From: a virus
Taxonomy: Duplodnaviria > Caudoviricetes
IMG/VR virus record: IMGVR_UViG_3300037439_000069
Span: 1 to 46,104 of that record
Length of the DNA: 46,104 nt
Direction: 5' to 3' (one strand)
Each line of letters starts with the position of its first letter. Position 1 is the stretch's first letter. Shown here piece after piece: positions 1,049-45,810 of the stretch. A model generated the notes under the pieces. That model saw only the letters and a program-made list of their open reading frames with translations, was not told the DNA's origin and searched no databases. Both the position numbers and the translations under genes were made by a program.

Positions 1049-1570
1049 GTGGCTGGTGTAAAGATTAATTTTGCTGAAGTTGAAAGTAGCTTTGAACCGC
1101 TGCCAGAAGGACGCTATGAATGCGTCATTGAAAAGGTTGAAGTTCGGGATTCCAAGTCTTCAGACAACGATTACCTCAATTGGGAACTTAATGTCTTGGA
1201 TGATGAGTACGAAGGACGTAAGCTTTGGATGATCACGTCACTCAGTCCTAAGGCACTATTTCGTCTTAAGGATGTGTTCCTAGCACTTGGTGTTATCGAA
1301 GAAGACGAAGAACTGGACCTTGAATGGGAAGACGATGTAGACATTCAGCAGCAAGAAGGTCCACTTGTTACCAATCCTGAGCTAGAAGGCCTGGCGTGTA
1401 TTGCTGTGGTCGTCAACGAGATGTACGAAAGTCGCGAGCGTAATCGCGTAAATGAACTGCTAGATGGTAGTGGAGAAGTTCCTGAAAAGGCTCCTGCCGC
1501 GAAGAAAACGCCTGCCAAGAAGTCGGCTCCCGCACGGAAAGCTGGGACGAGGCAGCGCTCGCTCCGATGA
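1049..1570 (+). CDS. DUF669-type single-stranded DNA-binding protein
   Basis: FEPLPEGRYECVIEKVE...YEGRKLW...RNRV pattern. GTG start with AAAGGAG RBS. Follows the Sak4-like gene. Confidence 0.75.
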   Translation: MAGVKINFAEVESSFEPLPEGRYECVIEKVEVRDSKSSDNDYLNWELNVLDDEYEGRKLWMITSLSPKALFRLKDVFLALGVIEEDEELDLEWEDDVDIQQQEGPLVTNPELEGLACIAVVVNEMYESRERNRVNELLDGSGEVPEKAPAAKKTPAKKSAPARKAGTRQRSLR

Positions 1571-1950
1571 AGGTAACTAAGGAATTCACATTCCACGCTG
1601 CACACATTGATAGGGAGGCGCCCGCAGGTCACCAATGCGGGCGCCTTCACGGGCATACCTACAAGCTGGAACTCACGGTTTGCGGCATCGTTCCGAAGGG
1701 TGGATCGATGCTCATTCATGGTGACATTCTGAAAGAAGTGTACCGCGCTCAAATTGAACCGTTTGTCGAACACCAATACTTGAACGACACAATGAATTTT
1801 AATCCTACGATGGAGAACGTAGCACGTTGGTGCTTGCAGCAACTAGAAAAGTACATAAGCAACAACATAGAAACAACGAAGGTGATGTGGAGTTACAAGT
1901 GCTCCGTTCGTTTGTGGGAAACTCCGACCATGTATGCTAACTGTCCATGA
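1567..1950 (+). CDS. queD: 6-carboxy-5,6,7,8-tetrahydropterin synthase
   Basis: FTFHAAH, CGRLHGHTY, HQYLN, PTMEN and VRLWET motifs of the T-fold QueD family. Confidence 0.92.
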   Translation: MKVTKEFTFHAAHIDREAPAGHQCGRLHGHTYKLELTVCGIVPKGGSMLIHGDILKEVYRAQIEPFVEHQYLNDTMNFNPTMENVARWCLQQLEKYISNNIETTKVMWSYKCSVRLWETPTMYANCP

Positions 1951-2272
1951 CCAAATGTCTGAACAAGAATTTTTTCCAGTAGCACCTTTCGTTAACCGAT
2001 TTTACGAATTGCAACGTATGGGCGTTAATACGTCCCTTATTTGCAGGCGCTTAGAATGGGTCAAAAGTAAACCAGATCGTGTTAAACCAGCCGCAGAAAC
2101 ACAACGTTTGCTGCGCGTGCTTGGTTTAAAAACCTACAACGTAGGAACAATAAAGGGCGGTACTCGATGTAAACACATTTTTCCTCCCAATCCTAACAAA
2201 CAAGTTCGTAAACATACAGCGAAACAGTTATGTGATGCTATGGATATTCCTTATTCAGACGTTGGACTATAA
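1934..2272 (+). CDS. Hypothetical protein, possibly with a C-terminal HTH-like segment (start may be 1955)
   Basis: Fills the gap between queD and queE. C-terminus is TAKQLCDAMDIPYSDVGL. Confidence 0.55.
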   Translation: MLTVHDQMSEQEFFPVAPFVNRFYELQRMGVNTSLICRRLEWVKSKPDRVKPAAETQRLLRVLGLKTYNVGTIKGGTRCKHIFPPNPNKQVRKHTAKQLCDAMDIPYSDVGL

Positions 2273-2275
2273 TTC

Positions 2276-3046
2276 ATGATTGAAAAAACATTACCAGTTG
2301 TAGAAATATTTGGTCCTACCATTCAAGGTGAAGGGATGGAACAAGGTGTCCCTGTGCACTTTGTTCGCTTCGGGGGGTGCGATTATCGATGCGGATGGTG
2401 TGACACTCCGTACGCCGTGATCCCTGCGGAGGTTCGTGAGAACATTACGAAAATGACATCAAACGCCATTCGTCTGAGTCTTATGGTAAACGTACGAAAA
2501 AGTGCACCATGGGTCGTCTTGTCAGGTGGCAATCCCGCGTTGCTTGATCTCAGGCCCCTGATTAACGAGCTGCATCAGTATGGTTTTAAGGTGGCCGTCG
2601 AAACGCAAGGATCGTGGTACCAGGATTGGTTCTGTATGTTAGATCGGCTATGCATTTCTCCTAAGCCACCATCGGCTGGAATCACTGCGGAGCAGCAAGA
2701 TCATGCTCGCCGCATCATTCAAGAAGTGATGAACGTAGGACTTAACTCAATAACGTTCCTCAAAATTCCGATCTTCACCAAAGAAGATCTTGACTTCGCT
2801 GAGTTCACACATCTGACGTTTCACAATGTTCCAATGTACCTTACCGCTGGTAACGATGCAGGACGTACAGTAGGAGATCCCACACGCGAGGACAAGCGGG
2901 ACATTGGCGAAGTACAAACCGATTTGTGTGCTGGTTACGCTGAACTCGTAGAAGCCGTCTTGAGGCGCGAGACGCTTCGCAATTCTCGCGTCGTCGTACA
3001 AGCACAAATGCATGTTCTTGCTTGGGGGAACCAACGTGGCGTTTAA
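2276..3046 (+). CDS. queE: 7-carboxy-7-deazaguanine synthase (radical SAM)
   Basis: EIFGPTIQGEG, FVRFGGCDYRCGWCDT (CxxxCxxC), SGGNP, VETQG, ISPKPPS and QMHVLAWG. Confidence 0.95.
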   Translation: MIEKTLPVVEIFGPTIQGEGMEQGVPVHFVRFGGCDYRCGWCDTPYAVIPAEVRENITKMTSNAIRLSLMVNVRKSAPWVVLSGGNPALLDLRPLINELHQYGFKVAVETQGSWYQDWFCMLDRLCISPKPPSAGITAEQQDHARRIIQEVMNVGLNSITFLKIPIFTKEDLDFAEFTHLTFHNVPMYLTAGNDAGRTVGDPTREDKRDIGEVQTDLCAGYAELVEAVLRRETLRNSRVVVQAQMHVLAWGNQRGV

Positions 3047-3047
3047 C

Positions 3048-3269
3048 ATGGCTAACGACACAGGACCCGGTGACAAGAACACGTTCAGCGCGCGTCGTCA
3101 AGCGTGCGGGTGTTTGGGCCTTCCTGATGGTCAACATATGATAACGTGTATATATAACCTAAGCAAATCACCACCAACGTACGCTGCAAAGTGCGAGAAT
3201 TGTGGGTTCCATAGCAAAGCAGAACATGGCGTGTGTGACTTTTGCGGTAAAGAAATGGAGAAGGTATGA
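3048..3269 (+). CDS. Small Cys/His-rich putative zinc-binding protein
   Basis: CGC..H...C and CENC..CDFC motifs. Its stop overlaps the folE start (ATGA). Confidence 0.55.
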   Translation: MANDTGPGDKNTFSARRQACGCLGLPDGQHMITCIYNLSKSPPTYAAKCENCGFHSKAEHGVCDFCGKEMEKV

Positions 3270-3880
3270 CACCCGACGTATGGAATCCATATATGAATGC
3301 TGGCGATTCACAACGAATACGTACTAGCAATGTTGAAGAATCCATCCATAACATGTTGACAATGATATGTCCTGTGTCGAATCCTGGTATAGAAGAGACA
3401 CCAGATCGTGTCGCTCGTATGTGGATCAATGAGTTAACAACCGGATACGACGTTGACATCCCGTCACTGTTTCGTTTGTTTCCTGATGAGGCTTATAAGG
3501 GGATGGTGATTGTCAAGGACATCCCGGTTCGATCCGTTTGTGAACATCACTTGGTACCGATTATTGGATACGCACATCTAGGGTACTTTCCAGACGGACA
3601 CATCATCGGTTTGTCAAAGCTCGCGCGCGTTGTCGATGCGTACTCTCGTCGTCTGCAGGTGCAGGAACGGTTAACACAGCAGATACATGCAGCTATCGAC
3701 AAGTACATGGAACCGCGCGGTGCGATTGTGACAATTGAAGCAGAACACATGTGCATGACCATTCGTGGCGTGCAAGCACCCGGTACTCGAACTGTCACGT
3801 CAGAAGCTAGTGGCTTGTTTATCGAGGAAGATGGGGTCAAAGATGAATTCTTTGAATTGATAGGTAGGAACAATCACTAA
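3266..3880 (+). CDS. folE: GTP cyclohydrolase I
   Basis: ETPDRVARMW, SVCEHHLVP, GLSKLAR, RRLQVQERLT and AEHMCMTIRG. Confidence 0.96.
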   Translation: MTPDVWNPYMNAGDSQRIRTSNVEESIHNMLTMICPVSNPGIEETPDRVARMWINELTTGYDVDIPSLFRLFPDEAYKGMVIVKDIPVRSVCEHHLVPIIGYAHLGYFPDGHIIGLSKLARVVDAYSRRLQVQERLTQQIHAAIDKYMEPRGAIVTIEAEHMCMTIRGVQAPGTRTVTSEASGLFIEEDGVKDEFFELIGRNNH

Positions 3881-3890
3881 TGAAAGGTAA

Positions 3891-4637
3891 GTGATGAATC
3901 ATCCTCCACATCATCATGACGGTGCAGTAGTACTACATTCAGGAGGACAGGATAGCACAACGTGTTTGGCGTGGGCTATGCACCATTGGGGGCGTGAAAA
4001 TGTCTTTCCTCTTTCGTTTAACTATGGTCAACGTCATTTAGTTGAACTAAGTGCTGCTGTAATAACTGCTGAACGGTTAGGCGTTCGACAAAATCGTATG
4101 CTTCCAGTATCAGCATTGAATATTTTGGGAGCTGCGGCATTGACTAATCCTGATATTACGGTCAATGCTAATGCAGAAGGCACAGGCAATACATACGCCG
4201 AAGAACGTGGTTTGCCATCAACATTCATTCCCGGTCGAAACATGCTGTTCTTTACGCTTGGCATGGCGTACGCAGCGAAGCTCGGAGTACATAATTTGGT
4301 AACAGGCGTGTGCGAAACTGATCGTGCAGGTTACCCTGACTGCCGGCATGAGTTCGTCAACGCAGCGCAGCGGGCGCTCGCTCTCGCGTTGGACGACGAC
4401 AACCTCATCATTCATGCCCCATTAGTTCACAGGTCAAAGGCAGAAACATTTTTGCTAGCTGAGGATCTTGGTGTTCTCGATATGGTTATTGAAGATACAC
4501 ATACCTGTTACAACGGTAACCGATCTAATCGATTTGATTGGGGTTACGGATGTGGGGAATGTCCTGCGTGTCTTGAACGTTCGCGTGGATGGACGGAATA
4601 CGACGAGGATCTTGCTGACAAAGGTATAGTACAATGA
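3891..4637 (+). CDS. queC: 7-cyano-7-deazaguanine (preQ0) synthase
   Basis: SGGQDS PP-loop, YGQRH, PGRNM, YPDC, TCY and CGECPAC. No fused glutamine amidotransferase domain. Start may be the ATG at 3894. Confidence 0.96.
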   Translation: MMNHPPHHHDGAVVLHSGGQDSTTCLAWAMHHWGRENVFPLSFNYGQRHLVELSAAVITAERLGVRQNRMLPVSALNILGAAALTNPDITVNANAEGTGNTYAEERGLPSTFIPGRNMLFFTLGMAYAAKLGVHNLVTGVCETDRAGYPDCRHEFVNAAQRALALALDDDNLIIHAPLVHRSKAETFLLAEDLGVLDMVIEDTHTCYNGNRSNRFDWGYGCGECPACLERSRGWTEYDEDLADKGIVQ

Positions 4638-4897
4638 ACAAAACGGTACTAGAAGAAGCGGCATATATCGTTGAAACTAATCGTCAAGACATATATGGCG
4701 ACGCGGGTGTGACGGCAGAACTCTTTGCTAAAATTGCCAGCGCTGCAACAGGACTAACAATCATTCCTGAGCACCTTCCTCTTTTGATGATTTCATTGAA
4801 ACTGGCGCGCGGGAATCCGTACGAATGGAATCGTGACAAATGGGTAGATATTGCTGGATATTCGCGCGTTGCAGAACTGATTGAAAATGGTGAATAA
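4634..4897 (+). CDS. DUF6378-like small helical protein (putative nucleotide pyrophosphohydrolase-like)
   Basis: LEEA...RQDIYG...MISLKLAR...DKWVDIAGY matches the pattern I recall for the phage DUF6378 family. Confidence 0.7.
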   Translation: MNKTVLEEAAYIVETNRQDIYGDAGVTAELFAKIASAATGLTIIPEHLPLLMISLKLARGNPYEWNRDKWVDIAGYSRVAELIENGE

Positions 4898-5733
4898 TGA
4901 AGATTGCATACATTGCACCAATATCTGAATTGGAGTATACTAATCGTTCGGATTTGCATCTTGTCTTGCCTCATTTATTTAGCGAACCTTTCGGCGCTCG
5001 ATACCGACAACACTACAGACGACGCCGCTCACAAGGTGACTATTTAATCCTCGATAACGGTGCTGATGAATTTGGTTCAGCAACAATCAGGTTGCCGGCG
5101 TTGCTCGGTCACGCGCGCCGCATGCGCGCTCAAGAAGTGGTGCTACCCGATGTTCAACAGGACGGTCGAGCGACGGTGAACGCCGTGCAGGAAGCGTGTG
5201 AATGGCTCCTAACGGAAGCAGGTCGATCAGCGTATCGAAGCGCTGAGCGCCCACGTCTGATGATCGTTCCGCAGGGCAAGTCGTACGATGAATGGGTAGA
5301 TTGCTTTTCGTCCATCTTTGAATTGACACTTGGAACGGTGGCCCGCATTGATCCTGATTCAGAGTACGAAACGGAGAAAGATCCCATTGTTGTTGGTGTT
5401 GCCAAGAATCACGACAAGTTGGTCCTTGGTGGAGTCGTGCGTTTAGTACACACAATCAAGTCCAATTTGAAAACGGACATTCACATGTTAGGATGGCCTA
5501 GAAGTCCTTCTTCGATGACTCAAATTGTCAGAATGGATTGTGTTCGATCTGTTGACACGGCACGACCGTTTGTGTATGCGATGAATAGGCAAACAGTTAC
5601 ATCCGTTCATGGGCGGCATCGACCTTACCCGGGTCGTATGGACAATTACTTTCGTCGAACAATTGCACCTTCACTGCGTCCTTTGGTCCTCCGTAACATT
5701 GAATATTATGAGGATCAATTGACGCATGATTGA
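4897..5733 (+). CDS. Divergent TGT/DpdA-like TIM-barrel protein (putative 7-deazaguanine transglycosylase)
   Basis: Motif order LDNG - LPDV - VPQG - HMLG - SVDT parallels the tRNA/DNA-guanine transglycosylase motifs (DSG, D, QG, H/YxxG, D). Lies within the preQ0 operon. Confidence 0.65.
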   Translation: MKIAYIAPISELEYTNRSDLHLVLPHLFSEPFGARYRQHYRRRRSQGDYLILDNGADEFGSATIRLPALLGHARRMRAQEVVLPDVQQDGRATVNAVQEACEWLLTEAGRSAYRSAERPRLMIVPQGKSYDEWVDCFSSIFELTLGTVARIDPDSEYETEKDPIVVGVAKNHDKLVLGGVVRLVHTIKSNLKTDIHMLGWPRSPSSMTQIVRMDCVRSVDTARPFVYAMNRQTVTSVHGRHRPYPGRMDNYFRRTIAPSLRPLVLRNIEYYEDQLTHD

Positions 5734-8293
5734 AGATGCATGGTGTAACATATGTACAAAGTGTCCTTCAAACAGGCACAGTGTTGTTGATCGCAATGGT
5801 CTTGCGGGTGACACTGCTCTTGTTTTCGATTGGCCTTCTGAAATAGAAGATAGTCGAAATACATGGTTAGCAGGGAAACGCAATGGAGCGAATGATTTGT
5901 TCCGCGCGCTGCTCGAGGCTGAAGGAATTAACCTTGATGATTTGTACATGTGTTCTGCAGTTAACTGTCGACCGAATTCTAAGAAAAAAGTCATGCAAAA
6001 GAACGCGATGCTTGCGTGTCGTGAGCGTCTGGTCAGTGAGCTTAAAGAAGTTGGTATTAAACGTGTGCTATGTGTAGGTTCTTTAGGATACTCAGCATTA
6101 ATGAGTTCTAAAGGACTTGATGCAATTACGAAAGTACGTGGACGATGGTGCGAAGCGTACGGAATGAAGATTCTCGCAACTTTGCCACCTGGTTTTGTAC
6201 TTCGTTCACCTGATTACTTTCGAGATCTTGCGTACGATATTCATAAATTCTTTACTACAAATGGTCGCGACCCGTACCCTGATGTACAGCTGTGGGTACC
6301 TGAGACTGTCAAGGAAACTGATGAAGCATTTGAGTACTTGCGTGAACAAAAAACCATTTCAATCGATCTTGAGACAACTGGTTTATCCCCCATATCGAAT
6401 GCACCGTTGGCTGCGGGTTTCGGGGTGCTGCACGATGACAAGCTCAACGCGACAGTTGTGATTCTTGATGAGGGGATTCTTAGTAAAACAAAGCCATGGC
6501 GTCACATAGCGCAGCTCCTTAACGCTTCTGCGTGTGAAAAGGTGTTACATGTAGGTAAGTTCGACTTGCAATTCTTCAAAGAGCAATTCTTGCGTCACAA
6601 TTTGAAGTACGATCCGAAGAACATACATGATACGTTGCTATTGCACTACACAATTGATGAACGTCCAATAGGTCGTTTTAAGTCCCACGGATTGGAAACG
6701 CTTGCTCGCGTGCGATATGACGCGCCTGCTTATGGAATCGATGTTGCAAAGTTTCTTGAAACGTGGAAGACTGCAAGTGAATACGACAAGCGTGACATGC
6801 GCCGTAACTTGCACATATATTTAGGATTGGATTGTTACTATACAGCGCGCCTGTTTCCTGATTTGTGGAATGAAGCGTATAAAGAAGACCCGAAACTACT
6901 CGAACTTTACGAGGATTTACTCCTGCCTGCCTCATTAGCGATTGCTGAAATCGAACATCATGGGATACTTATTGATCGTGAATTTTACGAAAAGTCACGC
7001 GACAAGCTTGAGGGCAAATCTAAGCGTCTGCTGAAAAAGATCCAAAAAACAACAGGTATCATTGATTTTAACCCAAATTCACCAAAGCAAGTTAAGAAGT
7101 ATATATACGATGTTTTAAAACTTCCATTTGGTTTGGCGCAGGATAAAGATGGGAAAGTCTATCACACGGCACGCCGCGGCGGGTTGCAGGAAGGTGCGAC
7201 CGCGGCACCGGTGTTGAAGTCACTCGCGTATCGTTTTCCAGAACATAAAAAAATCATTGACGACATCTGCGAATACCGGAACCTGTCAAAGAACATCGGA
7301 ACGTACGTTAACGGGATCCTGCAACGTTGCGATACCGACGGACGTATTCGAACATCATTGAATCTTGCTGGTACATCAACAGGACGTTTGAGCTCAAGCA
7401 ATCCGAACCTGCAAAATGTACCTGATGCATCGCACACAGGCGTTGAAATTCGTGGGGGCTTTATACCGACACCAGGCAACGTTTTCATAGAAGCCGATCA
7501 CAAGCAACTCGAGGTTCGTGTCGCAGCGTGGTTGTCAGGTGACGAAGTCATGCGTGGCATCTTTGAATCTGGGCGTGACCCGCATCAGGAAATCGCGTAC
7601 TCGATTTACGGGTTACCTAAAGAACAGATCACTCATTATATGCGTTGGCTTGCAAAGAACATCCTGTTCGGATTGCTCTACGGACGCGGGTACGAAAGTG
7701 TCGCGACGGGACCCGAGCAGGAGGACATCGCAGCACGTGGCGGACGACGTTGGGGGCTCGATGAGGTCAAATCGTTTTACGACAATCTTCTCGCTGAGTG
7801 GGCTCAGTTTGCTGAATGGCAGCAAAATCAAAAGGTCATGGGGTACCGCGATGGTGAAATTGTCATGCCGACAGGACGGCGCCGGCGGTTTGGTTTCATC
7901 CCACGACACGACGCAGGATACGTTGGGCGCGCGTCCTTTAATAATCCCATTCAAGGTACGGCGTCAGACTTCACTTTGTACGCGCTCATTCGATTGCACG
8001 CGCGACTTCCTGAAGGCGCTCACCTTGTCCTCACGGTGCATGACTCCCTACTGATTGATTGTCCCAGACATTTGGTTGATGAAGTCTGCGATTTGATTCA
8101 TGAGGTCATGGAAGACGATACACTCTTCGACATCGATGTTCCCTTGTTGGCTGACATCGACATCGAGGAACGATGGGGCGAAAAGGAAGGTGCTAAACAG
8201 CACATTCCTATCGTGGAGCAGGAAGCGATTGAACGTGCTGAGAATGAGTCTAAGGTAAGAACATTGAAGACGGCAGAACCGTATTCATCATGA
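5726..8293 (+). CDS. Family A DNA polymerase with N-terminal family-4 UDG-like domain and 3'-5' exonuclease
   Basis: N-terminal CxxC...NCRP...C UDG-4-like segment. ExoI DLETTG, ExoII KFDL, ExoIII YLGLD. TGRLSSSNPNLQN, motif A DHKQLEVR, motif B KNILFGLLYG, motif C VHDS. Confidence 0.93.
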   Translation: MIEDAWCNICTKCPSNRHSVVDRNGLAGDTALVFDWPSEIEDSRNTWLAGKRNGANDLFRALLEAEGINLDDLYMCSAVNCRPNSKKKVMQKNAMLACRERLVSELKEVGIKRVLCVGSLGYSALMSSKGLDAITKVRGRWCEAYGMKILATLPPGFVLRSPDYFRDLAYDIHKFFTTNGRDPYPDVQLWVPETVKETDEAFEYLREQKTISIDLETTGLSPISNAPLAAGFGVLHDDKLNATVVILDEGILSKTKPWRHIAQLLNASACEKVLHVGKFDLQFFKEQFLRHNLKYDPKNIHDTLLLHYTIDERPIGRFKSHGLETLARVRYDAPAYGIDVAKFLETWKTASEYDKRDMRRNLHIYLGLDCYYTARLFPDLWNEAYKEDPKLLELYEDLLLPASLAIAEIEHHGILIDREFYEKSRDKLEGKSKRLLKKIQKTTGIIDFNPNSPKQVKKYIYDVLKLPFGLAQDKDGKVYHTARRGGLQEGATAAPVLKSLAYRFPEHKKIIDDICEYRNLSKNIGTYVNGILQRCDTDGRIRTSLNLAGTSTGRLSSSNPNLQNVPDASHTGVEIRGGFIPTPGNVFIEADHKQLEVRVAAWLSGDEVMRGIFESGRDPHQEIAYSIYGLPKEQITHYMRWLAKNILFGLLYGRGYESVATGPEQEDIAARGGRRWGLDEVKSFYDNLLAEWAQFAEWQQNQKVMGYRDGEIVMPTGRRRRFGFIPRHDAGYVGRASFNNPIQGTASDFTLYALIRLHARLPEGAHLVLTVHDSLLIDCPRHLVDEVCDLIHEVMEDDTLFDIDVPLLADIDIEERWGEKEGAKQHIPIVEQEAIERAENESKVRTLKTAEPYSS

Positions 8294-10080
8294 TTGATTT
8301 CGACGGAAAGAATCTTCTTGTCACCACGCCTCACGGACGGGGGAATGAAATCAAGGAGGACCTTGGTGGACAATGGGACAAAAATCGCAAAGTGTGGAAA
8401 CTCCCGCCAATTTCGCTCAACGTCCTGAAACTTGTTGAATGGTATGGTACTGATATTCTCGAAGGCGCGCCTGATGAGATACGCGAACTTGCTGAAGAAC
8501 CATGGGGGTTTTCCGGGTTTTCTGATGAAGAACGAGCGATCGCTCTAGGCCACCCGTCGTGGAATACTCTCTACCCATTTCAACAGGAAGGTGTCGAGTA
8601 CTTATATGCCAATCCTCATGGCACGGCGCTCTGCGCACTTTCGTGGGGATTGGGAAAAGGTGCTGTATCAATCGTAGCAGCTGACCTGCTACAGGTCGAG
8701 CGTGTATTGGTGCTGGCGCCACTCACGCTGGCGACCGCATGGGTCGGTGAATTCGAGCGTTGGAGCGCACGCACGCGCGACGTGACGAGGGCAACGGCCG
8801 ACAACCGTGAACCCGGTCCGGGCGTGACGATTGCCAATCATGAGGTCATACAAGAGGTCATTCTTCGCGATGAAGACGGAGAACTTTTCAAACCTGATTG
8901 GGTAACGAACGCACGCGCGGTCAAGCAGTGGCAACGCGACGGTCCTCAAACAGTCGATGCTCGAACACAAAAAGCAAAGCCCGAGCGTCAACGTATTGTT
9001 CGCGTTCGTCGGGACTACCTTGACATCGACTGGGATTTAATCATCATCGATGAATCTGTGCTGCTTAAGAATCGCAAGGCTATAAAGACCAACGTTCTCG
9101 CTCAGCTGCGCAAAGGCCGCGATCCGTTCATCTTTGAACTGTCAGGATCTCCGACGACAAAGTATCGTGACGACTTGTTCCGTCAAATGCAGATCCTTGC
9201 ACCGCGTGCGTTCAAATCGTATTGGCGATTCGCTGAGTTCTTCTGCGTTGTCAATCACGATGGGTGGGGATGGACGATTGAAGGTGACCGTCCTGATCGT
9301 GATCCACATCATTACCTACGAGACTTCATGTGGGTAATGTCCCAGGATCAGGCGCTGCTCGATCTTCCCGAGTACATTGAAAAGCACGTTCCGCTTGATG
9401 CGTTACCTAAGCAACGCAAAGCACTCGATCAAATGTTCAAGGATTGGGTTGTGGAACTGGAGGAGGATCCCGACGCGCTCGTTGCAGACAATTGGCTAGC
9501 ACGTAGCACTCGTTTACAGCAGATCACGTCGAATCTGGGATCGTTGCCGAAACCAAGTGAAGGATTTTTCAAACGAGAGTCGGCAAAAGAAGAACTCCTG
9601 TTCAAGTTCATCGAACAAGGTGACATCGAATATCCTCTTCTCGTCTGGACATGGTATGTGGAAACTACACGTGCCCTCATGGATCGTTTCACGAAAAGCG
9701 CGAAGCACTTGGACGTTGCATCAGTCATTGGTGAGGATTCGCGTAAACAAAAAGAGGATACTATCGCCGCTTTCAAAGGTGGAGAGCTCGATGTCCTCGT
9801 CATGCAGATGAACATCGGGAAGTTCGGTCACACATTTACGGGTACTAAAACCGTGTTCTATCATGATCGTACCTTTGATTCAGACGCATGGGTGCAGTCA
9901 CTGCACCGGGTTCGCCGGATCGGCCTCAAGCATCGCCCGGTACTTATCATACCGGACGTGCTTGATTCGGCCGATCAACTAATTAACGCGAACCTAGAGG
10001 GTAAGCTAGAATCCATCGCACGTATGACAAATGCAGATCTCATGCGACTTCTGCGTAGCTTGTATGTTACCAGTGGCTAA
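8290..10080 (+). CDS. SNF2-family (SF2) helicase
   Basis: LYPFQQEGV, Walker A-like WGLGKG, IIDES, LSGSP and motif VI QSLHRVRRIG. Confidence 0.88.
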   Translation: MIDFDGKNLLVTTPHGRGNEIKEDLGGQWDKNRKVWKLPPISLNVLKLVEWYGTDILEGAPDEIRELAEEPWGFSGFSDEERAIALGHPSWNTLYPFQQEGVEYLYANPHGTALCALSWGLGKGAVSIVAADLLQVERVLVLAPLTLATAWVGEFERWSARTRDVTRATADNREPGPGVTIANHEVIQEVILRDEDGELFKPDWVTNARAVKQWQRDGPQTVDARTQKAKPERQRIVRVRRDYLDIDWDLIIIDESVLLKNRKAIKTNVLAQLRKGRDPFIFELSGSPTTKYRDDLFRQMQILAPRAFKSYWRFAEFFCVVNHDGWGWTIEGDRPDRDPHHYLRDFMWVMSQDQALLDLPEYIEKHVPLDALPKQRKALDQMFKDWVVELEEDPDALVADNWLARSTRLQQITSNLGSLPKPSEGFFKRESAKEELLFKFIEQGDIEYPLLVWTWYVETTRALMDRFTKSAKHLDVASVIGEDSRKQKEDTIAAFKGGELDVLVMQMNIGKFGHTFTGTKTVFYHDRTFDSDAWVQSLHRVRRIGLKHRPVLIIPDVLDSADQLINANLEGKLESIARMTNADLMRLLRSLYVTSG

Positions 10081-44274: not shown

Positions 44275-45448
44275 GCCGCAGAACGCGACTCACAATCTGC
44301 TCGATGTCTCAGTCACCGAGCGCGGTGGATTTCGTACATGTCGTCGTCAATGGTTTTATGAGACAATTGAGAACCTGCAGCGTAAGGGCGCGCCGCCATG
44401 GCACTTTGAGTTCGGCACATGGTTCCATGAGCTCCTGGCAGGTATATACGCTGGTGAACCGTTGTCGTTTGAGGCCTTAAAAGTTGACGCCAAGCAGTGG
44501 ATCGCTGCAATGGTAGAGAAGTTTGACCCAGATGCTGAATCACATGAAGAACTTTTGGCATTGAGTGAACTTGGTATTGCAATGTACAGAGAGTACCAAG
44601 AATATGACATCGTTGCACCTGTGCAACTCGGTACACCCCTCGCAGTCGAGGGTAAATGGATCGGAAAAGCACCCGAAGAGTCGCGTCTTCCAAAAGGTTA
44701 CCCAAAAAGCGCCCAAGCAGTCCTACATGAATCAGGGCGCTTCCTCGTTCCTATTGTGCATCCTGACACAAAGGAACCTGTCGTGTACGGCGGTCCACCC
44801 CCTTGCCTATCAGCCCGGATCGACCTGCTTACGGAACGTAAGACGCCGAAGAAGGGGCTCTGGATTGTCGATCACAAAACAACGGCCTCATCCCCGAATG
44901 ATCGTGGCCTCGACTTTGACGATCAAATAACGGGGTACTGTTACGTCGTGTGGCGGTGGACGGGGGAGATCCCGCGTGGAGTAGTCTTCAACTATGCGGT
45001 CAAAAAGGTGCCAAAGGAACCTCGATACGTCCAAGCCACCAAGAAGAATCCATCAGGCTTGTCTACAGCCAAGGATCAATTGACGACGCCTGACGCTTAC
45101 CGTGAAGCGCTCAAGGATGAAGGGCTCATGATCGGTAACAAAGTCACGTCAGAATCACATGCTGATTGCCTTGCAGCGTTACTTGAACGTGGATGGGATC
45201 CATTTTTCAAACGCTTCGAGGTCATGCGTAATGAGCAAGAGTTGTTGAATTTCGAGAAGCGTCTGTTTTGGGAGTATCGCGATATGTACACAGCGTGGGA
45301 GCAGGAGGAGCTGCGCTATCCGAATCCGAAAGCTTTCTGGTGTCCGGGTTGTTCAGTGCGGGAAATTTGTCAAGCGATGGAAGATGGGTCCGACGCGGAC
45401 GACGTAATTGAAAGTCAATTCGTTATCGGGGAAGATCGTAAGGCATGA
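44243..45448 (+). CDS. PD-(D/E)xK (Cas4/RecB-like) exonuclease
   Basis: F.TCRRQW, FGT.FH, RIDL...IVDHKT, Q...Y and a C-terminal CPGC...C. Confidence 0.85.
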   Translation: MSDASLLLKIEPQNATHNLLDVSVTERGGFRTCRRQWFYETIENLQRKGAPPWHFEFGTWFHELLAGIYAGEPLSFEALKVDAKQWIAAMVEKFDPDAESHEELLALSELGIAMYREYQEYDIVAPVQLGTPLAVEGKWIGKAPEESRLPKGYPKSAQAVLHESGRFLVPIVHPDTKEPVVYGGPPPCLSARIDLLTERKTPKKGLWIVDHKTTASSPNDRGLDFDDQITGYCYVVWRWTGEIPRGVVFNYAVKKVPKEPRYVQATKKNPSGLSTAKDQLTTPDAYREALKDEGLMIGNKVTSESHADCLAALLERGWDPFFKRFEVMRNEQELLNFEKRLFWEYRDMYTAWEQEELRYPNPKAFWCPGCSVREICQAMEDGSDADDVIESQFVIGEDRKA

Positions 45449-45810
45449 AAACACGCGAAGATGTTAAAGGTGTAACTCACAAAGTTACAATTGGCAGTTT
45501 CAAAGGATTCATTACTATCAACGTAACAATTGATGGTGATCCTTTAGAAGTGTTCATCCATGATTTTGGCAAACTTGGTTCTATTATGCAAGGATGGGCA
45601 GATGCATTCGCGATCATGCTCTCTATTTACCTTCAATCGAATGGGGACATCAGTCGCCTCGCACATCGCTTTGCTCGTAAGAGTTTTGAACCTTATGGGA
45701 AAACGGACAATCCTAATATCCCGTGGTGCGATTCGTTACCCGATTACGTATTTCGGTATCTTTCATTGATATACCCCGACCTAAATTTAGGATCGATATG
45801 GATCGCATAA
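45445..45810 (+). CDS. Stand-alone TSCPD domain (class II ribonucleotide reductase C-terminal-like)
   Basis: G.ITIN...PLEVFI...K.GS...DAFA...S..LQ...FEP.G.T.NP.I..C.S..DY. Confidence 0.75.
   Translation: MKTREDVKGVTHKVTIGSFKGFITINVTIDGDPLEVFIHDFGKLGSIMQGWADAFAIMLSIYLQSNGDISRLAHRFARKSFEPYGKTDNPNIPWCDSLPDYVFRYLSLIYPDLNLGSIWIA

Follow-up and report, generated by a model that had tools for sequence, protein, structure and literature searches.

Kinase-type partner genes beside phage DpdA3, and a DUF6378 gene in a predicted deazaguanine operon: a possible nucleotide-level route to modified DNA

In the three DpdA3 phages that have been measured, CP220, phiST and immuto_2-6A, every guanine of the DNA is replaced, the products being dADG, dDG and fdPreQ1 (PMC10516641). 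The question is by what mechanism guanine substitution becomes complete in DpdA3 phages. The exchange was called post-replicative by the authors, whose attempts to reconstitute DpdA3 in E. coli failed (PMC10516641). Free ADG nucleoside was reported from CP220-infected Campylobacter (PMC10516641), which we count for a nucleotide route, and a route via modified dGTP was proposed earlier for Campylobacter phages (as cited in PMC6884629). The main text of PMC10516641 nowhere uses the word "kinase", and a literature search that covered few subscription papers retrieved no other relevant paper on DpdA3 and nothing assigning DpdA3 a nucleotide substrate. Here we analyse the IMG/VR virus record IMGVR_UViG_3300037439_000069 (46,104 nucleotides (nt); this whole stretch is called the window below). 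In it, the gene of a 278-amino-acid (aa) protein (4897-5733) follows genes for preQ0 synthesis and an 87-aa DUF6378 gene, and precedes that of a family A DNA polymerase (PolA).

The closest layout is that of BSP7/BSTP5 (Bacillus; Cui et al. 2023, PMC10516641, Data S1) and Weizmannia phage Youna2, which encode the same FolE, QueD, QueE, QueC and DpdA3 and no QueF, so that the operon type is already published. As in the window, the end of their dpdA3 gene is shared with the beginning of a family A polymerase gene; they differ in the order of the que genes and in a P-loop kinase-like gene just upstream of dpdA3, where the window has DUF6378. Phage phiST carries a protein of the same family with genes for nucleotide enzymes next to dpdA3, namely a MazG (CGPG_00068) and an AAA_18-type gene (CGPG_00066), but its product is dDG, it encodes DpdL and no QueC, and PolA does not adjoin its dpdA3. 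The DpdA1 phages 9g and CAjan also combine preQ0 genes with a TGT-fold enzyme without CxCxxC beside replication genes, whereas their modification is partial and made on DNA, and no kinase-type partner is found. The Z-genome phages (PurZ, DatZ, MazZ or DUF550/DUF5664, DpoZ) offer an analogy only, namely full base replacement together with interchangeable nucleotide-pool enzymes (PMC12884076). They differ in that the window ORFs (open reading frames) scanned contain no PurZ or DatZ and the pairing face would be unchanged here, and DUF6378 is not a known homolog of DUF550/DUF5664.

Sequence comparison places the 278-aa protein in DpdA3, a subfamily already in the literature. A Pfam scan with its own sequence gave no match, while phrog_20335 matched at E 6e-9. 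In tblastn the protein found 13 phage records, BSP7 (AYJ76173.1) among them, and its best cultured-phage match was the DpdA3 founder CGPG_00065 of phiST, which it matches over the full length (22.7% identity over residues 1-275, E 1e-4). With a 43-sequence profile, hhalign aligned 246 columns to CGPG_00065 at a probability of 99.8%, and the window, phiST and BSP7 proteins share one BLAST cluster. The AlphaFold2 (AF2) model is of high quality (pLDDT 94.4) and its top Foldseek matches are all TGT or DpdA structures. VIA gave Z 15.3 against archaeal TGT (rmsd 3.4, 234 aligned) and Z 15.1 against DpdA 7ui4 (rmsd 3.7, 233 aligned), and the best viral match in BFVD, a comparison of predicted structures, is the 259-aa phiST protein (TM 0.73, E 9e-17). 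Three aspartates, D53, D85 and D220, are kept without exception in the 50 family members compared (50 of 50), those of phiST and BSP7 among them; order and motif would equate them with the Salmonella DpdA residues D95, D130 and D256 (PMC10164549). The TGT fold and the DNA-modification role proposed in a sequence-only reading of this DNA, which also suggested this profile and structure comparison, are thus supported by the model and the fold searches, and the LDNGA motif and the absence of CxCxxC which it noted are indeed there. Its label "non-canonical" or "divergent" has to be dropped: of 71 DpdA3 proteins, 65 have DNG and none has CxCxxC, which all 75 DpdA1 proteins compared lack too. The protein does not fit DpdA1: the 75 DpdA1 proteins all have DSG, and the DpdA3 profile reaches an hhalign probability of only 10% against six DpdA1 proteins. 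The family is large, with 4,712 representatives at E<=1e-10. Two loci, L063 (5890-7367) and L077 (5932-7761), carry two tandem DpdA3-like genes, one copy each being without LDNG.

The survey of the genes beside dpdA3 started from the best 80 of 88 IMG/VR loci, to which the window and four cultured phages were added. Clustering at 70% identity and removal of loci with less than 4 kb upstream left 51 DpdA3 loci, each examined from -4 kb to +1.5 kb around the marker gene. At least one of five small partner genes was present in 42 of these 51 (P-loop kinase in 9, DUF3310 in 5, a family termed c10 in 13, DUF6378 in 6 and an Nmad1-like gene in 12), and MazG in 23. Across the loci the five partner kinds are nearly mutually exclusive: two kinds occur together in 3 loci, compared with 10.9 expected from a permutation that ignores kinship. 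On a tree of the DpdA3 proteins (50 of the 51 rows, the truncated L050 being excluded and the kinase label of L026 set manually) there are 23 changes of partner label, the kinase, DUF3310 and Nmad1-like labels being scattered and those of c10 and DUF6378 clustered. T7 gp1.7, described as a dTMP/dGMP kinase (PMC11897194), carries the DUF3310 domain (E 4.5e-23); two partner kinds are therefore kinase-type. The Nmad1-like label stands for a common K..R / D...Y pattern plus sub-threshold PF07659 matches.

Some further observations concern the same neighbourhoods. The gene immediately before dpdA3 at L026 (5123-6001) joins MazG with a P-loop-like domain; the motif missed this gene, and the locus was counted as partnerless. 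Family c10 (about 105 aa, RH..G..YG ... E..D..NY, no Pfam match) is found at L024 (2559-2885) and 29 other loci, and within one large clade it sits between MazG and dpdA3. Genes of the nucleoside 2-deoxyribosyltransferase family or for a phosphoribosyltransferase lie near or adjoin dpdA3 at L064 (5582-6001), L081 (5294-5932) and L013 (3591-4070); the former family is present in the DpdA1 loci L183 and L220, too.

At DpdA1 the partners are missing. The partner-family profiles found none in 86 DpdA1 loci (the best 80 of 466 plus six cultured phages), an added P-loop motif test left 0 of 9 clusters with a partner, and a Pfam scan that took in 16 of the loci, with 46 of their 61 ORFs, detected no kinase, DUF3310, DUF6378 or DUF1599. 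A second control started from the polymerase: 79 loci chosen by polymerase similarity (from the best 80 of 588 scanned) gave 46 clusters under the same filters, 25 of them without DpdA3. A partner was found in 12 of the 21 clusters with DpdA3 versus 3 of the 25 without (Fisher p 0.0016), the latter comprising two found by the profiles and one kinase added by Pfam on 162 of 170 ORFs. A locus search with a single PolA sequence gave no match. It is this pattern, kinase-type partners that are nearly exclusive of each other at DpdA3 and missing at DpdA1, which makes us favour exchange at the nucleotide level.

The sequence-only reading had considered such a pre-replicative option, to which the partner pattern lends indirect support; the coupled atypical polymerase that it noted is evidence for neither route. 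In 32 of 51 loci PolA is no more than 100 nt away from the dpdA3 stop, yet adjacency had to be rejected as timing evidence, because clamp and polymerase also adjoin DpdA1, which has been shown to modify plasmid DNA; moreover, 25 of the 46 PolA clusters do without DpdA3. Two other candidate signs of a small-molecule substrate were discarded as well, namely the absent zinc motif, which DpdA1 lacks too, and charge, where the medians are -2.7 for DpdA3 and -2.6 for DpdA1 per 100 residues (p 0.92).

The partner in the window is the 87-aa protein encoded at 4634-4897. Its PF19905 score of 54.4 bits (E 1.5e-14; ESM Atlas 0.95) lies above the curated cut-off of 27.1, so it is a DUF6378 member and not merely DUF6378-like. 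The AF2 model is all-helical (pLDDT 87) and has no Foldseek match at E<=0.001. The best VIA Z of 4.7 is to unrelated helical proteins and MazG-like chains score at background level (Z 3.6); on the model, the fold searches appear neither to show nor to exclude a MazG fold. ESM Atlas returned nothing usable outside PF19905. Profile comparison with family c10 detected no homology (probability 1.3%), and that with DUF3310 gave 0.3% in hhalign on shallow alignments, so that the link to DUF3310 is positional only. A word-index search of the protein collection found 3 homologs, one of them 90% identical. Of the six partner and MazG-type profiles, DUF6378 is the sole one to match in the window genome, whose only detected P-loop motif sits in the primase. 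Close relatives keep it, and at L005 and L006 a C-terminal DUF6378 domain lies directly upstream of dpdA3. None of the six DpdA3 loci with DUF6378 has a kinase or MazG, which suggests that DUF6378 could replace either.

Judging from its position, the DUF6378 protein is plausibly, though somewhat short of probably, a kinase for the modified dNMP; it may possibly be a dGTP pyrophosphatase supplying dGMP instead, and that it has no role in the modification route we consider rather unlikely. The sequence-only reading had proposed that it depletes dGTP, but a kinase would suit the position at least equally. An acidic motif, D69xxD72, is present. The wide distribution of DUF6378 is slightly more in keeping with a general kinase than with an enzyme destroying dGTP, although homologs of the DUF5664 pyrophosphatase occur in canonical genomes too (PMC12884076).

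That this operon modifies DNA with a deazaguanine is very probable. FolE, QueD, QueE and QueC would make preQ0 from GTP, a synthesis that is established chemistry. DpdA3 could then exchange guanine for preQ0 on a free deoxynucleotide, most likely dGMP, by the three-aspartate mechanism of TGT and DpdA, with DUF6378 handling the nucleotide pool as modified-dNMP kinase or as a pyrophosphatase giving dGMP from dGTP, and the modified dNTP would enter the DNA through the phage PolA. Most or all of the guanine would thereby give way to dPreQ0, which should protect against restriction, as shown for other deazaguanine phages. On the neighbourhood evidence, we hold a nucleotide-level, pre-replicative preQ0 route for most or all G in the phage DNA at roughly even confidence. 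The stronger form, in which DpdA3 is the first TGT-superfamily member to work at the nucleotide level, acting on dGMP, and the DUF6378, Nmad1-like and c10 proteins are unrecognised nucleotide kinases or phosphotransferases that can take the place of P-loop kinases and T7 gp1.7, is unlikely on present evidence.

A number of observations weigh against exchange on free nucleotides. The defining paper assigns DpdA3 a post-replicative exchange (PMC10516641); the relatives that have been tested, TGT, DpdA1/2, bacterial DpdA and Cap10-CdnD (the last according to a structure title), act on polymers or protein. The partner profiles were seeded from the DpdA3 loci, 9 of 51 of which are without a detected partner. 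In the PolA control, 3 of the 21 loci with DpdA3 are contigs of the first set, and the count becomes 10 of 18 when they are removed. The 86 DpdA1 loci amount to just 9 clusters of low diversity, and 4 of the 86 have MazG. DpdA3 and DpdA1 are not separable by net charge. The window genome encodes no MazG or P-loop kinase, and in DUF6378 K56xxR59 stands where the first acidic motif of MazG would be expected. In three of the six loci (L018, L049, L063) DUF6378 lies within the que cluster and does not adjoin dpdA3. Of the 475 phage records with the domain, 444 are mycobacteriophages, and none of these is among the 13 DpdA3 tblastn matches. Finally, CGATCG is depleted in the window (2 sites, observed/expected 0.12), which complete protection would not require.

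An alternative is that DpdA3 puts preQ0 in place of G once the phage DNA has been synthesised, perhaps moving along with the replisome, and that DUF6378 and the other small neighbours only tune the dNTP pool. We regard it as a serious though less than even possibility. It is the proposal of PMC10516641; the same three aspartates serve exchange on DNA in bacterial DpdA (PMC10164549); the plasmid-modifying DpdA1 shares the que-dpdA-polymerase layout, the missing CxCxxC and the median net charge; and DUF6378 and MazG occur without DpdA3. Such an exchange must, however, reach 100% without sequence specificity, where DpdA1/2/4 attain at most about 30% (PMC10516641), and it leaves without explanation why kinase-type partners are kept and swapped at DpdA3 but missing at DpdA1. 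A separate question is which base is made. It is doubtful, though worth keeping in mind, that the product is dADG from a QueC variant, dCDG or a host-extended base, or that substitution is partial. Campylobacter DpdA3 phages with QueC carry dADG, and the insertion of preQ0 by DpdA3 has been doubted (Cui et al., PMC10516641); for DpdA3 phages with the minimal gene set the DNA product is a predicted one. The depletion of CG-containing 6-mer palindromes would also suit another base or partial substitution; against it, the QueC of the window is a full-length Pfam match, QueD has the canonical motif, and the operon is without DpdL, QueF and ArcS. It is highly improbable that the 278-aa protein belongs to DpdA4 (DUF6610) or has tRNA or protein as its substrate instead of DNA or DNA precursors. 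TGTs and Cap10 share the fold, and 4 of 43 distant homologs match PF20314 weakly (best E 2.1e-6), but the protein itself has no PF20314 match at E 0.1, and it lies in a replication operon. In addition, the structure match to phiST DpdA3 (E 9e-17) is far stronger than that to a 387-aa HCTV-1 protein (E 0.019), which we take to be DpdA4 by its length and virus.

The operon itself is encoded on the plus strand, and the gene order queD-orf-queE-orf-folE-queC-DUF6378-dpdA3-polA and tight junctions described in the sequence-only reading stand, with overlaps of 1-17 nt or gaps of 1-10 nt. The same coupled run of genes extends further than described there, to a Sak4-like single-stranded-DNA-annealing ATPase (9-1037; phrog_124 E 5.2e-34, AAA_24) and a DUF669 protein resembling single-stranded-DNA-binding proteins (1049-1570; PF05037 E 1.1e-10), which overlaps queD by 4 nt, and downstream to a SNF2-type helicase (8290-10080; phrog_62 E 2.1e-66), whose gene overlaps polA by 4 nt. 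QueD, the CPH4 synthase (1567-1950; PTPS PF01242 E 8.5e-24), carries CxxxHGH and not LxxxHRH, the motif pair that separates QueD from DpdL (PMC10516641), and no DpdL gene was found within the operon. It is followed by a 112-aa ORF (1934-2272) without Pfam or PHROG match and without a relative in any of 84 other DpdA3 loci; by QueE, the radical SAM CDG synthase (2276-3046; phrog_2076 E 5.5e-41); by a 73-aa zinc-ribbon-like ORF (3048-3269; zinc-ribbon Pfam matches below threshold) with a single relative among the DpdA3 loci, in L006; by FolE, GTP cyclohydrolase I (3266-3880; PF01227 E 6.4e-61); and by QueC, the preQ0 synthase, without Gat domain (3891-4637; PF06508 E 1.8e-63). The reported lack of queF, gat-queC and arcS holds within the operon; beyond it, the scan that found none covered only part of the ORFs. 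FolE gives one sub-threshold QueF cross-match (E 0.022).

The polymerase (5726-8293; PF00476, PF01612, PF03167) has UDG-like, 3' exonuclease and PolA parts. Its N-terminal UDG-like domain (5813-6211, residues 30-162) has degenerate catalytic motifs, FDWPS replacing GEAPG and LPPG replacing HPA, changes that L006 shares; it keeps four cysteines but is probably inactive as a glycosylase. PolA motif A reads DH in the window, compared with DY in 15 relatives. Two full-length family A polymerases in tandem, with an ORF of about 65 aa between them, were seen at L010, L011, L015 and L019 (in the last three downstream of dpdA3).

From a 127-nt terminal repeat and genes for terminase, portal, head and tape-measure proteins (a primase is also encoded) we conclude that the window is a whole tailed-phage genome. 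A stand-alone TSCPD domain, which is ribonucleotide-reductase-associated, is encoded at 45445-45810 (E 1.1e-9). Over the whole window, CG-containing palindromes are depleted as 6-mers and not as 4-mers; besides CGATCG, the sites ACGCGT, TTCGAA, CTCGAG and GTCGAC stand at 0.2-0.4 of expectation.

What the window adds is that DUF6378, DUF3310 and Nmad1-like genes appear interchangeable with P-loop kinases beside dpdA3. As its sole partner is an 87-aa protein, and MazG and kinase genes are absent from the rest of the genome, the window makes a minimal test case and offers a direct way to the function of DUF6378. If DpdA3 does need a nucleotide substrate and a partner that handles the pool, this would account for its failure in the E. 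coli tests, and the claim that all deazaguanine DNA arises after replication would be overturned. Should the stronger form hold, there would be a route to fully deazaguanine DNA resembling that of the Z-genome phages, and a function for a domain that hundreds of phage records contain.

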